Source of the DNA: an uncultured delta proteobacterium
GTDB lineage: Bacteria; Myxococcota_A; Polyangia; Polyangiales; Polyangiaceae
DNA length: 64,000 nt
Direction of reading: 5' to 3'
NCBI GenBank assembly: GCA_963827955.1
Contig: CAWHDJ010000018.1
Location: 1,309,297-1,373,296 of the forward strand
Shown here: positions 26,338 to 32,961 of the stretch, in pieces
Layout of the letters: the number at the start of each line of letters is the position of its first letter
How positions within the stretch are numbered: position 1 is the first letter of the stretch
Position numbers and translations under genes: made by a program
Notes under the pieces: model-generated
What the model saw: only the letters and a program-made list of their open reading frames with translations
What the model was told of the DNA's origin: nothing
The model's database searches: none

Positions 26338-26535
26338 GCGGCGTGCGTTTGCATTGGGTACGCACCTACCGAACCGCGAGCGCGAGCGAGCGGGTGCCAG
26401 AAGGCGCGACGCTTTCGTGCCCTCGCATGCGTAGCGCTACAGGCAGCGCGACGCGGGCAAGGGCGTGGCGCGTAGGCGCCCTCTGGCACCCGCTCCCTGG
26501 CGGTCGCGGTTCGGTATGTACTCATCCCGAACGCA
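26338..26535. repeat. ~200-bp imperfect palindrome (large stem-loop)
   Basis: Outer arms ggcgtgcgtt..taccgaaccgcgagcg / cggtcgcggttcggta..aacgcacgcc. Inner arms gtgccagaaggcgc / gcgccctctggcac. Confidence 0.6.
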
Positions 26536-26542
26536 CGCCGCT

Positions 26543-26760
26543 CTAAATCAACGAGCGCGATCCTCGTTCAAGGAGCCGCTGAGCAACGTATGGAACCCCG
26601 GGCGTGAGCCCGCGGACCGGAGCCGCATGCGTCAGCACGCGGAGGCCGCGGTACAGCCCCCTGACGTCATGGTCCCCGCGCTCACGCGCGAGGCTCCGGT
26701 CCGCGGGCTCACGCCCGTGGGTTCCATCGTGGTGTCGGATCGCGCTCGGCCATTTCAGGG
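26543..26760. repeat. REP/MITE-like palindromic element pair (family shared with 32800..32961)
   Basis: Copy 26543-26620 (ctaaatcaacgagcgcgatcc...tatggaaccccgggcgtgagcccgcgg) and an inverted partial copy 26695-26760 (ccgcgggctcacgccc..ggttccatcg..gatcgcgctcggccatttcagg). Near-identical in sequence to the hairpin element at 32.8 kb. Confidence 0.7.
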
Positions 26761-26773
26761 GCCGGGCCCTCGC

Positions 26774-29192
26774 TCACTGGACGTTGCAGACGAGATCGGT
26801 GCCAGGCGTCGAGCCGCACACGGTGGTGACGACGGTCGACTTGGTGATCGCGATCTGCGTCTCCGTGTCGCCCGACGCGTTCGGGATCTGGATCGCGGGC
26901 ATCGTGAAGGTCGCGGTCTTGTAGTTCGTCGAGCTGAACGTGGCGGTCCCGAGCATCTGGTTCCACGTCTGGAACGAGTCTCCCAGCTCTGCGGCCGGAA
27001 CCTGACCACAGATGAGGCCGCTGCCGGTGCACGCGATGTTGCCCCACTGGTTGAATCCCGTCGCACATCCGACGCCCATCGCGGCTCGACCGTTGGTGTA
27101 GCTCCAGCTCGTCATTCCGTTCGGCACCGGCGTACAAGCGCCCCAGGTGAGCGTCGTCCCCGCCAGCGTTCCGCTCGCGTTGTCCACGCACGGTCGGGAG
27201 ATGGTCGGCTTGACGTTCGTGCACGCGGTGCCGCCGGCCCCGCAGTTGGCGGTGCCGGCGGCGAGCATGCCGAGGCTCGCGTCGACGCCGACGACGAGCG
27301 TCCCCGTCTGGCCGAGCACGGTGACCGCTTGCGAGAAGTAGATCGGGAGGTACTGCTCGACGAGGTAGACGGGGCCTGCCGTCGGGGTCCCCGTCGCGTC
27401 GTTCGTGAAGCGGAGGCGCAGCATGCCCTGGGTGAAGGTCGCGGTGGTGAACGGCGAAGTGTCGCCTGCTCCCGTGAACTTCGGAGTGTTCGGGTGCGTG
27501 GCGCCGACGTTCTCCGTGACGTTGGCCGCCGCGATGGGGGCTTGCGAATCGCGAACGTGCCCGAGATGTGGTACACGACGTCGGTGTACGTCCCGCACGA
27601 GGACGACGTACACGTCGGCGCCGCGCTCCACGTCCCCGAGGCCCCGCAGGTCGGATCGCCGCCCTTCTTGGTGTAGCCCGTGTTGCACGTGTACGCCGCG
27701 GTCGCGCCGAAGGTGTCCGTGCTCCCGCCGCCGTCGCCCCCGCTCACCGTCGGCGCGCCTGCGTTGGTCACGGTCGGCGGAGCGCCGCAGTTGATCGGCG
27801 CGCAGGTCGGCGCCTGCCCCCACGTGCCGTTGGCGCCGCACGTCGGGTCGGCGCCGTTCAGGGTGTAGCCGGTGTTGCACGTGTACGCCGCGGTCGCGCC
27901 GAAGGTGTCCGTGCTCCCGCCGCCGTCGCCGCCGCTCACCGTGGGCGCGCCCGCGTTGGTCACCGCCGGCGGAGCGCCGCAGCTCACCGGCGCGCACGTG
28001 GGCGCGGGCCCGGTGAACATCCCGTCGGCCTGGCAGGTCGCCATCGCGGTCCCCATCAGCGTGTAGCCGCTGTTGCAGCTATACGTCACCGTGTTGCCGA
28101 ACGTGGCCGTCGGCGCCGAGACGGAGCCGTTGGCCGGCGCCGTCGCTCCCGAGCACGTCACGGGGGTGCTGCAGTTGGTGCCGGTCCAGCCCGGGTCGCA
28201 CGTGCCGCACGTGTAGCCGGTGCCGCCGACCGGCATGCAGCCCGTCATGCTGTGTACGCACGGGTCCGGCGTGCAGCCGGTCATGATCTGGGTGCAGGTC
28301 GGCGCCGTGCCGCTCCACGTCCCGTCCGCCTGGCAGGTCTGCGTCGCGTTGCCGGTGAGCGCATAGCCGCCGTTGCAACTATAGGTCGCGACGGTCCCGG
28401 TGGTGCCCATCGTCGGCGTGACGCTGCCGTTGGCCGGCGGAACGAGGTTGGGCGTGCAGGGGCTGGGCGCGCAGGTCGGCGCGGGGGTGGCGAACGTCCC
28501 GTCCGACTGGCAGTCCGAAACGGCGGTGCCATTGAGCGTGTAGCCCATGTCGCAGGCGTAGGTCACCGAGTTGCCGAACGTGGCGCTCGACGAGGAGACC
28601 GTGCCGTTGGCCGGCGCGACGGCGCCGGTGCACGAGACCGGCACGTCGCAGTTGGTGCCCATCCAGCCCGGGTCGCACGTGCCGCACGTGTACCCGGTCG
28701 CGCCCATCGTCATGCATCCGGTCATGCTGTTCACGCACGGATCGGGGGTGCACGCCGTGTTCGTCGTCCCGCTGGAGCTCGAGCTGGCGCTCGTGGTGGA
28801 GCTGGCGCTCGTGGTGGAGCTCGCGCTCGCGCCGCCGGCCCCGCTCGAGCTGCTGGCCGCGCCGCCCGCCCCGCCGCCACCGCTGCTCGACGAGGTGGCG
28901 CTGCCCCCGGTCCCGCCGGCGCCGCTGCTCGACGAGGTGGTGCTGCCCCCGGCTCCGCTGGAGCTGGTCGACGAGGTGGCCGCGCCCCGGCTCCGCTGGA
29001 GCTGCTCGACGAGGTGGCCTTTCCGGTGCCGCTGGAGCTGGTCGACGAGGTGGCCGTGCCGCCGGTGCCGCCCGCGCCCCCGCTGCCGGTGGCCGTGGTG
29101 ATGGTCGAGGAACCACAGCCTGCGGCCACGAGGCCCAGCGCGACGATGGGGAGCGCCGCGGAGCGGTGCGGAGACGAAGAGCGCATGTTCAT
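26774..29192 (-). CDS. large lipoprotein with EGF-like and Sushi/CCP domain repeats (two apparent frameshifts)
   Basis: Lipoprotein signal MNMRSSSPHRSAALPIVALGLVAAGC (ATG ~29192; ORF 28731..29282) plus an S/T/G linker. About 5 Sushi-like units (C..P....NG.V......G..V.Y.C..GY.L.G...C...G.W.G..P.C) interleave with EGF-like CDPGW(M/T)GTNC (ORF 27112..28734). The C-terminal domain is in ORF 26774..27997. Confidence 0.65.
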
Positions 29193-31117: not shown

Positions 31118-31150
31118 ACGCGGCGCGGCCCGAGCGGTCCCTCGATCCGC

Positions 31151-32790
31151 GTGCTCGACCGGCTCTGGGCCCTCTGGCAGGTGCCCCTGAGTCCCCACAT
31201 CAGCCTCGAGCCGCTCCAGCGCACGGCGGTCACCGCGATGCTCCTCGACGCGGAGAACATCGTCGCCCGCGGCTACGCGCGCGCGACGATCACGCACTTC
31301 ACGGGCGACGAGGCGGCGTACGCGCATCGGCTCCAGGCCGCGATGCAGGCCGATCGCTGGCACGTGGCCGAGTTCGCCCACAAGTACGTGACGCGCGAGC
31401 GGGCGCGCGCCGTCCTGGTGACGCCGCTCCCGGGGCGCGTGACGCCCGAGCCCGAGCCCGAGCCCGAGCCCGAGCCCACGCTCGCCCTCCCGCTCGACGA
31501 AGCGCCTCCCTCGTTCGACGCCGACGCGATCCACCGCTATGTCCACGCCCCCGGCGTCGCGGCGTACCGCCGCGTCGTCCTCGACAACGGGCTGGAGGTC
31601 GTCATCGGCCGCCGGACGGGGCTGCCCATCGCGACCGTGGGCCTCTCGCTCCACGGCGGCGCCGCCACCGCCGAGCCCAAAGGCGCCGACAATCTCGCCC
31701 GGCGCCTCGCGCGCCCCAGGTTTCCCCGCAGCGTCGACGCCGGGTACTTCGGCGGCCACCTCCTCACCCGCTACGAGCGCGACCAGCTCGTCTACACAAT
31801 CTCCGCGGCCGCAGGGAACGTGGCCAACATGCTCGACGTCCTCTCCCGCCGGTCCCAGATGATGTTCGTGGACTCCACCGTTGCGAAGGACTTCGATCGC
31901 GACGTGATCCCCCTCGTCGCCAAGCTCGAGCTCGCGCCCGAGGTGCAGGCGGGGCGGGCGTTCCGCGCGGCGCTCTTCGGCGCGCACCCCTACGGCCGCA
32001 CCCTCGCCGCGAACGAGCCGCGCACCTCCGCGCCGGCGACGCGAACGACTGGCTGGACCGGACGGCCGTCCCGCACAACGCCGTGCTCGCGATCGTCGGC
32101 GAGATCGATCCGGACGCGGTTGAGCGCCTGGTCCGCGACACGTTCGGGGGCTGGTCCGGCGCGCAGCCGGCCGAGGCGCCTCCCCCGCCTCCGGAGCTGC
32201 CCGCGAAGGCGCCGAAGCCCATCGCGATCGTCACGCACCGCGCCGGCGCCACGCAGGCGCAGATCCACCTCGGCTGCCTGCTGCCTCCGCCCGGCGCATC
32301 GCGCGCGCGCTACGACGTGATGGCGCGGATCCTCTCCGAGCGCCTGACGAACGTCGTCCGCCGGAGCCTCGGCGCGAGCTACGGCTTCCACGCGGGCGTG
32401 ACCACCTACCGCGGGGGCGCCGCCGAGCTCGGGCTCCACGGCGACGTCGACAACGAGCACGTCTCCGACGCCCTCGCCGCCCTGCGGCGTGCGCTCATCC
32501 TGCTGGAGCAGGGCCACTTCAAGGAAGGGGAGGTCGACGCCGCGCGCTGGCGCGCGGCGCGCTCGTACGCGGTACGCTACACGACCAACGCCGCGATCGT
32601 CCGCTCCATCCTCGCCGCGCGAAACGAGGGCCGCGACGTCCGCGCGCTCGACACGTACCCCGAGGATCTCCTCGGCGTCACTCCCGAGTCCCTCCAGGCC
32701 GACTTCGCCCGCTGCGCCGCCGCGCCGATCCTCTCCCTCGTCGGGGACGAGCCCACCGTGCGCGCCGCGCTCGCCCAGGTCTGGCCGTGA
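31151..32790 (+). CDS. M16-family peptidase unit 2 (inactive-type half; apparent frameshift near 32030)
   Basis: ORF 31151..32320 (YRRVVLDNGLEVVIGRRTGLPIATVGLSLHGGAAT...) continues in ORF 30934..32790 (...AVLAIVGEIDPDAVERLVRDTFGGW...AQVWP*). It may form one ~900-aa two-unit protein with unit 1. Confidence 0.55.
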
Positions 32791-32799
32791 GCGCCGCCG

Positions 32800-32961
32800 G
32801 GCTCTGCCATTTCAGGCGTTATCCCGACGAGGGCCCGCGCCCGATGGTCGGCTAAATCACCGAGCGCGATCCTGACACAACGATGGAACCCGCGGGCTCA
32901 CGCCCGGGGTTCCATACGTTGCTCCCGGCTCCTTGAACGAGGATCGTGCTCGGTGATTTAG
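32800..32961. repeat. REP/MITE-like hairpin element (same family as 26543..26760)
   Basis: gctctgccatttcagg...ctaaatcaccgagcgcgatcctgacacaacgatggaacccgcgggctcacgcccggggttccatacgttgctcccggctccttgaacgaggatcgtgctcggtgatttag. Two arms in inverted orientation. Confidence 0.7.

Follow-up and report, generated by a model that had tools for sequence, protein, structure and literature searches.

Palindromic repeats bracketing a gene block in a Polyangiaceae-like genome are probably non-autonomous IS630-type elements at stop codons

[quoted passage not shown] Element E is present in two copies of opposite orientation, a 217-nt form, E(A), at 26543–26759 and an internally deleted 110-nt form, E(B), at 32852–32961 (Table 1). 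The 208-nt P1 occurs once, and is a second palindromic MITE, flanked by TA, that is unrelated to E and stacked on the same TA. All three are hairpin palindromes with no coding capacity, and each is within the size expected of MITEs (under ~300 bp). These MITEs are real but ordinary, and do not represent a new kind of system; the main value of the analysis lies in annotation, as conspicuous long palindromes of a Polyangiaceae-like genome can be explained as IS630-derived MITEs.

The near-identical modules described in the earlier note were recovered at both sites. Positions 26542–26615 match 32890–32962 in inverted orientation at 70 of 74 positions (95%), and the segments 26701–26749 and 32854–32897 match at 89%. 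A 26-mer, ATGGAACCCCGGGCGTGAGCCCGCGG, occurs exactly twice, with none expected from shuffles, and the motif ccatttcagg likewise has just two occurrences, at 26750 and 32807. E(A) has ~105 central nt that are absent from E(B). Site B is predicted to fold into a single 110-nt hairpin (−73 kcal/mol, z = −8.9) and site A into a hairpin of ~220 nt (−155 kcal/mol, z = −9.0). The additional palindrome of ~200 bp was also borne out, at 26336–26543, with a folding energy of −163 kcal/mol (z = −14.4).

Table 1. Features of the bracketed region, in window coordinates.
Feature	Position	Strand	Remarks
Small conserved ORF, outside block	26025..26336	+	GC3 0.92–1.0
Stop of ORF 26025..26336	26334–26336		TAG, in CTAG 26333–26336, made of target TA 26334–26335 and the initial G of P1
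P1, near-perfect palindromic MITE-like element	26336..26543	.	208 nt; GAGCGGCGTGCGTT...AACGCACGCCGCTC; TA on either side
TA common to P1 right end and E(A) left end	26544..26545	.	From sequence
E(A), long form of MITE E	26546..26759	+	217 nt as 26543–26759
E(A) left TIR	26543–26566		Intact; includes CTA
E(A) one-sided bulge			16 nt: TCGTTCAAGGAGCCG
E(A) central palindrome	26616–26700		
E(A) right TIR	26737–26749		Tip degenerate, CCATTTCAGG in place of TGATTTAG; no clean right TA
11-mer GCCATTTCAGG, first copy	26749–26759		
Block minus-strand genes	26774..29282	-	Sushi-repeat ORF and upstream 183-aa ORF
Sushi-repeat ORF	27112–28734	-	Pfam Sushi, 5 repeats, E = 1.4e-40
183-aa ORF	28731–29282	-	Upstream of Sushi ORF, start-to-stop overlap
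DUF4189 gene	29545..29900	-	Pfam PF13827, E = 1e-15, residues 193–284 of ORF 29545–30411 (-)
M16 metallopeptidase, one long gene	30072..32790	+	Pfam M16_C; tblastn with homologs switches among frames 3, 2 and 1
11-mer GCCATTTCAGG, second copy	32806..32816	+	
Spacer between 11-mer and E(B)	32817..32851	.	35 nt; small hairpin CCGAC...GTCGG; from sequence
E(B), short form of MITE E	32852..32961	-	110 nt; orientation opposite to E(A); both TIRs intact; bounds C-TA (32852–32854) ... TA-G (32959–32961)
ORF outside block	32958..33242	-	94 open codons, GC3 0.85; 62 aa from first start codon
Stop of ORF 32958..33242	32958–32960	-	TAA: target TA plus terminal base of E(B)

The parentage of E is indicated by its ends. 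The TIR comprises 22–24 nt, CTAAATCACCGAGCGCGATCC(T), and the first 22 nt at the left end of E(B) coincide perfectly with the right terminus of complete IS630-family elements of 1187–1189 bp found in three contigs (L133, L116 and L106) of soil metagenomes. The 361-aa ORF of these 1.19-kb elements matches NCBIfam NF033545 (transpos_IS630, E = 5e-60) and the Pfam families DDE_3, HTH_32 and HTH_29, and their transposase clade numbers over 6,500 close homologs, most of which are located on contigs of ~1.2 kb. The E TIR is present in 45 metagenome contigs, where it bounds short elements of 89–565 bp with unrelated hairpin interiors; at the family level it is therefore widespread and not unique to the two sites. 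All 12 complete copies with this TIR, E(B) among them, are bounded by C-TA...TA-G, and P1, like E(B) and the 11 other complete copies, has TA...TA flanks within the same context. The MITE reading, one of several offered in the earlier note, is thus supported, specifically as IS630/Tc1-mariner type. The TIR, CTAAATCA[C/G]CGAGC[G/A]CGATCCTCG, offers a means of masking or cataloguing these MITEs in GC-rich soil bacteria.

IS630-family elements insert at TA with duplication of the TA, and IS630 prefers a TA inside CTAG, according to PMC2170065 (also citing Tenzen 1990, 1991). A TA target duplication at E and P1 is suggested by their own flanks, those of the relative contigs without the elements (L103 and L153) diverging on one side. 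The conserved C and G beyond the TA could belong to the element and not to the target. No transposase of IS630 type was detected in the 64-kb window (tblastn, best E = 0.1). A plasmid collection (blastn) and two scans of viral contigs gave no matches. A loose gapped pattern, CGAGCRCGATCCN{5,30}ATGGAACC, gave 102 matches in genome contigs, which is essentially chance, and the element was in none of them. The degenerate tip CCATTTCAGG was not found beside family members in ~1 Mb of other loci.

Copies of E are strongly associated with stop codons. Among 51 unique TIR ends of metagenome copies, 23 have a coding-like ORF upstream, and in 20 of these 23 the ORF stops exactly at TA+A, formed by the target TA and the first A of the element (binomial p = 1.6e-7); at unoccupied CTAG ends the proportion is 23 of 176 (Fisher p = 8e-5). 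This quantitative link is an example of how target specificity and selection together determine at which sites of high-GC genomes transposons persist. Both genes outside the block have stop codons that adjoin an element in the window, E(B) in one case and P1 in the other, and the bracketing is thus a consequence of where insertions can be tolerated. With 14 occurrences in the window and 165 expected, the CTAG tetranucleotide shows a 12-fold depletion in this Polyangiaceae-like genome of 72% GC.

A metagenome contig (L120) has the long form at a different locus, in a copy of 205 nt. This copy is 82% identical to E(A) along its length, central palindrome included, and of 74 stem pairs compared, three carry compensatory changes and none is broken. 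Since L120 shares the central segment, the long form is the established one and E(B) its deletion derivative. A nested MITE had been considered for the central palindrome of E(A) and was discarded, as the palindrome lacks TA flanks and the segment is also part of the L120 copy. The contig further contains a homolog of P1 (27 of the first 28 nt identical) in the same arrangement of host TAG stop, P1, TA and E, and the TAG likewise uses the first G of P1. The orientation of E with respect to P1 is reversed in L120 compared with the window, which disfavours a rigid composite element made of P1 and E. No parent IS of P1 was identified.

We propose that E derives from an IS630-family (Tc1/mariner-type) IS, of which it would retain just the ~24-bp transposase-binding TIRs, with a long interior between them that forms a hairpin. 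Excision of the element and its insertion into the TA of CTAG, with duplication of the TA, would be carried out by a transposase acting in trans, and the first base of the element would rebuild the stop codon (TA+A = TAA for E, TA+G = TAG for P1). Because CTAG is strongly depleted and intragenic insertions are presumably lost, surviving copies would accumulate at CTAG stop codons. P1 and E(A) would have settled to the left of the block, at the stop of the ORF there, and E(B), the long form after an internal deletion, at the stop of the ORF on the right, so that the bracketing would reflect two convergent gene ends. The hairpins may also act as terminators or stabilise mRNA.

A broader generalization is plausible, though somewhat short of probable: the IS630 clade, together with its MITEs (E as well as P1, which is unrelated to E), may be stop-codon homing elements of high-GC bacteria, which insert at the TA of a CTAG stop and rebuild the stop with their first base, making the insertion nearly neutral. 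If this holds, each insertion recreates CTA/TAG half-sites, which would favour the stacking of different MITEs on one TA, as with P1 and E in both the window and L120, and MITE pairs at convergent gene ends could provide the intervening genes with portable ends for recombination or mobilisation.

The gene content of the block agrees with the earlier note in comprising Sushi, DUF4189 and M16 genes, except that the M16 peptidases listed there in the plural are a single gene with at least four indels (near 30355, ~31110, ~31140 and ~32018). The Sushi ORF has an apparent frameshift near 27480 in the frame plot, followed by a frame that stops at 26774, and the 183-aa ORF upstream is without a family match. 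The atypical codon usage ascribed to the block was not found, its GC being 0.68–0.73 against a window mean of 0.716 and its GC3 ~0.9 or more. A Pfam scan of the block revealed no transposase or integrase. A pseudogenised island was considered and rejected: a frameshifted PNP_UDP/AAA/TPR gene (34357–38081) lies outside the block, which makes sequence quality or general decay the more likely cause.

The analysis does not bear out the suggestion that the elements delimit a mobile or variable cassette, but the region does vary relative to the nearest relative. The block is not syntenic in the nearest relative, represented by L103 and L153 (77–81% nt identity in shared genes), in which there are no palindromes at the corresponding gene ends; an ortholog of ORF 26025..26336 (71% aa) adjoins a kinase ortholog in L153, homology to L103 ends at 32807, and a further contig with a kinase ortholog (L152, 64% aa identity) shows no synteny with the window. 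The E and P1 elements mark rearrangement-prone intergenic sites. Mobility of the block is not supported, and we consider it improbable that the two E copies and the intervening 6 kb form a composite transposon that moves as a unit via the outer TIRs (26543 rightward, 32961 leftward). These outer TIRs, on the left of E(A) and the right of E(B), are indeed intact and inverted, with outer flanks of C-TA and TA-G, and E(A) has a degenerate tip on its inner side; CTAG-targeting composite transposons based on IS630 are documented (Tenzen & Ohtsubo 1991, as cited in PMC2170065), and in the nearest relative the M16 gene and the kinase/small-ORF pair are set in other surroundings, with no Sushi or DUF4189 gene beside them. 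The 11-bp direct repeat GCCATTTCAGG also brackets 26760–32805. However, P1 sits between the left flank and E(A), and insertion at a single site requires that the convergent flanking ORFs once shared one CTAG as overlapping stops. The block lacks both a distinct GC or GC3 and a transposase or integrase, two of the three homology breakpoints against the nearest relative fall close to the elements and not at their ends (26314–26318, ~20 nt from P1; 32807, 45 nt from E(B)), and the third, at 30036, lies within the block and far from any element. No junction of the outer flanks was seen in this relative. Each E copy alone fits the stop-codon pattern of single metagenome elements, and because both elements are attached to stops of outside genes, independent insertions explain the bracketing. 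As regards the MITE account itself, the GCCATTTCAGG direct repeat, found inward of each E copy, speaks against it, being unexplained by simple independent insertion.

Very stable folds, the location of both sites between convergent genes and compensatory changes that preserve stem pairing in the window copy and the L120 copy could also be expected of selected host elements (REP/BIME-like units, terminators, mRNA stabilisers between convergent genes or structured small RNAs) that are not transposon relics. This origin is very unlikely, since Rfam gives no match at gathering score in the window and, at E <= 1, only sub-threshold generic miRNA-hairpin matches, all of them at site A and not at site B, and the T-run signature of terminators is absent. 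Moreover, the ends equal those of IS630-family IS and are conserved among TIR-sharing elements with unrelated interiors, which is the opposite of a structural RNA. REP/BIME units, mobilised by RAYT, resemble E and P1 as extragenic palindromes between convergent genes that sometimes form multi-unit mosaics. REPs are imperfect palindromes of 20–40 nt with a conserved GT[AG]G or GTAG-type head and without TIR or TSD, and RAYT (Y1 transposase) genes are typically flanked by them. By contrast, the present units measure 110–220 nt, are flanked by TA and have ~24-nt TIRs that equal the termini of IS630-family IS; the REP reading of the earlier note was rejected on these grounds. No Y1 transposase was found by Pfam among the ORFs around the repeats and some large ORFs. 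Effects of host type may still exist secondarily. An artefact of long-read metagenome assembly, such as fold-back reads, is scarcely credible. The many frameshifted genes in the window (M16, Sushi ORF, PNP_UDP/AAA/TPR) suggest indel-prone sequence, and the nearest relative's contigs, whose record names end in 'np1212', belong to a nanopore-style assembly, but independent JGI metagenome contigs hold homologs with the same TIR, central palindrome and P1–E arrangement, and E is present twice in the window in different forms.

The MITE reading places E and P1 beside several known systems. The autonomous relatives (L133, L106, L116 and L150) resemble IS630/ISY100 in their DDE_3 transposase (NF033545) and TA-in-CTAG bounds, which fits the TA duplication and CTAG preference documented for IS630 (PMC2170065), whereas E and P1 encode nothing. 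The IS clade with ends CTAAATCACCGAGCGCGATCCTCG was found in metagenomes only and is not matched to a named ISfinder entry. RUP, the repeat unit of pneumococcus mobilised by IS630-Spn1, is a non-coding hairpin of ~107 bp with IS630-like TIRs that inserts at TA (PMC2229807). E(B) is similar to it in its 110 nt, its TA flanks and a TIR identical to IS630-family IS ends, but the sequences are unrelated, the TIR is ~24 nt in E and 9 in RUP, and the hosts are high-GC Myxococcota-like and Firmicutes, respectively. E further differs from RUP in its strict CTAG context and in the strong tie of its copies to host stop codons. The Correia/NEMIS elements of Neisseria are TA-flanked MITEs with ~24-bp TIRs, in short (~107 bp) and long (~155 bp) forms that differ in an internal segment (PMC2229807). 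Their sequences are unrelated to E, and E, unlike Correia, has an identifiable parent IS; the two Correia forms nevertheless parallel E(B), of 110 nt, and E(A), of 217 nt.

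The palindromic repeats described in the earlier note at two sites of the window, A and B, are present by alignment, by k-mer count and by folding. Positions 26542-26615 match positions 32890-32962 in inverted orientation (95%), positions 26701-26749 match positions 32854-32897 (89%), and a 26-mer core occurs exactly twice in the window, with 0 occurrences expected by chance. Each site carries one copy of the same element, E, in a long form at site A, E(A), and in a short form at site B, E(B). The extra palindrome reported to the left of site A was borne out as a separate element, P1.

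Predicted hairpin elements of sites A and B and the ORFs that end on them (window coordinates)
Feature	Position	Strand	Length (nt)	Energy (kcal/mol)	z	Description
P1	26336-26543		208		-14.4	Near-perfect palindrome directly left of site A, unrelated to E
E(A), site A	26543-26759		217	-155	-9.0	Hairpin
E(B), site B	32852-32961		110	-73	-8.9	Single hairpin
ORF	26025-26336					Stop TAG = TA + first G of P1
ORF	32958-33242	minus				Stop TAA = right boundary of E(B)

Element E is palindromic but asymmetric, with the terminal inverted repeats (TIRs) CTAAATCACCGAGCGCGATCC ... GGATCGTGCTCGGTGATTTAG. A 16-nt bulge, TCGTTCAAGGAGCCG, is found on one arm only and gives the element an orientation; by the side of this bulge, E(A) and E(B) are mutually inverted. 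E(A) corresponds to E(B) with an additional central segment of ~105 nt that includes an 85-nt palindrome (26616-26700). A 205-nt long-form copy with the same central palindrome is located at an unrelated locus of the metagenome contig L120, with 82% identity end to end, which argues that the long form is no local accident, and E(B) is best read as an internal-deletion derivative of it. The window and L120 copies differ by two-sided changes in 3 of 74 stem pairs, with no pair broken, a pattern that is, from two sequences only, no more than suggestive of stem conservation. Coexisting short and long forms have a parallel in the Correia elements, which occur as 107-bp and 155-bp forms (PMC2229807).

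Scanning metagenomes for the TIR CTAAATCANCGAGCRCGATCC gave 45 contigs, in which the TIR is found in two classes of context. The first comprises complete elements of 1187-1189 bp (L133, 2289-3477; L106; L116; also L150) encoding a protein of 348-361 amino acids with the Pfam domains DDE_3, HTH_32 and HTH_29 and a match to the NCBIfam IS630-family transposase (E = 5e-60). Close homologs of this transposase number more than 6,500; most are on contigs of ~1.2 kb, the length that a collapsed repeat would give. The second class consists of short elements of 89-565 bp that have only ends of ~24 nt in common, with unrelated hairpin interiors. Fixed ends with free interiors are the mark of a MITE and not what a structured RNA would show. 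The left end of E(B) matches the IS right end without a mismatch over its first 22 nt, and each of the 12 complete copies examined has the bounds C-TA[AATCA...TGATT]TA-G. IS630-family elements insert at TA with TA duplication, and IS630 itself prefers TA within CTAG (PMC2170065, citing Tenzen et al. 1990 and Tenzen & Ohtsubo 1991). P1 likewise has a TA at either end, in the L120 copy as in the window; its end sequences show no relation to those of E, and no parent IS turned up. The MITE reading put forward earlier is thus upheld by IS630-family ends, free interiors and C-TA...TA-G bounds: the window elements are very probably IS630-type MITEs, with RUP/IS630-Spn1 and the Correia elements as their nearest analogues.

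Family members with this TIR also cluster. L116 carries a complete IS (370-1558) and, ~330 bp past its right end, the end of a second copy facing away (1892 onward); in L113 (5172-5337) a single left end serves two MITE right ends, nested or in tandem. In L120, an IS (1145-2709) lies within the E(A)-like MITE; it has an 11-bp target duplication, GGGCTGACGCC, and a 468-aa transposase, assigned to the IS4 family from its YREK-type motif, YCHRWRVEDFHRAWKSG, alone.

The REP-type reading is rejected, because the elements have TIRs and depart from REP/BIME units in length and head motif. Rfam gave no match at the gathering score and only generic miRNA-hairpin matches at relaxed thresholds, and the elements show neither a T-run terminator signature nor one of a sigma-70-type promoter. 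The palindromes are unlikely to be an assembly artefact, since homologous structures are found in independent JGI contigs. It is very improbable that E(A), E(B) and the ~6-kb block between them form a composite transposon that moved as a unit: the intact outer TIRs lend the arrangement a formal likeness to one, but no sign of such movement was seen. Nor is there positive evidence for the mobile cassette proposed in the earlier note. The block encodes neither a transposase nor an integrase, and in GC and GC3 it does not stand out from the remainder of the window (window GC, 71.6%); the atypical codon usage attributed to its genes was not evident.

The placement of the IS630-type MITEs follows the stop codons of neighboring genes. 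CTAG is rare in the window (14 observed vs 165 expected from base composition). We analyzed 51 unique TIR ends on metagenome contigs, taking as coding-like any ORF of at least 40 codons with GC3 ≥0.8 that runs into the element. Such an ORF reaches the element at 23 ends, and 20 of the 23 stop exactly at a TAA composed of the target TA and the element's opening A (binomial p = 1.6e-7), with no comparable frame bias at unoccupied CTAG sites of the same DNA (23, 20 and 16 across the three frames). Stop codons of coding-like ORFs account for 39% of element ends vs 13% of unoccupied CTAG sites (Fisher p = 8e-5). The simplest reading is that CTAG/TA specificity, combined with the loss of gene-disrupting insertions, would leave surviving copies at stop codons. 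Both stop-codon host ORFs of the window lie outside the block, whose two bounding convergent gene pairs would explain its bracketing by elements, and a Sir2-like gene in L120 stops likewise on its copy of P1. The ends of P1 (TA-GAGC..., ...GCTC-TA) would themselves create TAG/CTA half-sites, which may be the reason that E occupies the TA of P1 both in the window and in L120, where its orientation relative to P1 is flipped. Elsewhere in the window, a hairpin of ~108 nt with no sequence relation to E or P1 (49847-49954; 41-nt arms, 95% complementary, built of GCAGAGAC repeats) lies 26 nt past a gene with a CTAG stop codon (49818-49821).

The earlier gene list for the block, Sushi, DUF4189 and M16, stands in part: M16 is one long gene, and a 183-aa ORF is additional. 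The Sushi ORF (27112-28734, minus strand) encodes five Sushi/SCR repeats (Pfam E = 1.4e-40), a domain type uncommon among bacterial proteins, and contains long DNA repeats, 96-192 nt each. The closest relative at hand (ENA sample ERZ26871208; 77-81% nucleotide identity in shared genes) lacks the elements and does not conserve the block as a unit. Its contig L103 has the M16 gene with no element after it and, where the window has DUF4189, an upstream 21-nt tandem array (30-470, GCGACCGCGACCTCGCGGACA); on L153, the kinase and small ORF found left of the block are followed by a different convergent gene, with no palindromes. The region thus varies between the window and this relative, but two of the homology breakpoints (26314-26318 and 32807) lie near elements without coinciding with their ends, and the third (30036) falls inside the block, far from any element.

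The breakpoint at 32807 falls within an 11-mer, GCCATTTCAGG, of which the window has just two copies, at 26749-26759 and 32806-32816. The first stands in place of the canonical tip of the right TIR of E(A), and the second is separated from E(B) by 35 nt; together they make a direct repeat flanking 26760-32805, each copy on the inward side of its E. None was seen near family members at the other loci examined. The second copy may be the remaining tip of a third E that has mostly been lost, or a recombination scar. Base-level details such as the degenerate tip of E(A) could include sequencing errors, because genes of the window are frameshifted: at least 4 indels interrupt the M16 gene (30072-32790), two of them a compensating pair near 31110-31140, the Sushi ORF shifts frame near 27480, and a STAND-like gene (34357-38081) is split across three overlapping frames, from either an indel-prone long-read assembly or genuine decay. 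The kinase has named homologs in Polyangiaceae (Minicystis, Polyangium and Byssovorax; ~46-61% identity, partial to full coverage).

Tandem repeats are found elsewhere in the window. A 21-nt array just right of site B (33325-34137; 38.5 copies, consensus AGCGGAGCGGGTGCGCTGCGG), different from that of L103, has no clear coding frame (GC3 flat); a 20-nt array of 20 copies, TCCCGCCGCCAGGCGCGCCT, occupies 63388-63788, and repeats of 42 nt (4.4 copies, 93% match) and 15/45 nt lie at 16926-17111 and 16040-16288, respectively. The STAND-like gene encodes, in order, a PNP_UDP_1 phosphorylase/nucleosidase domain, an AAA_16 NTPase and TPR repeats, an architecture reminiscent of STAND/Avs-type defence proteins.
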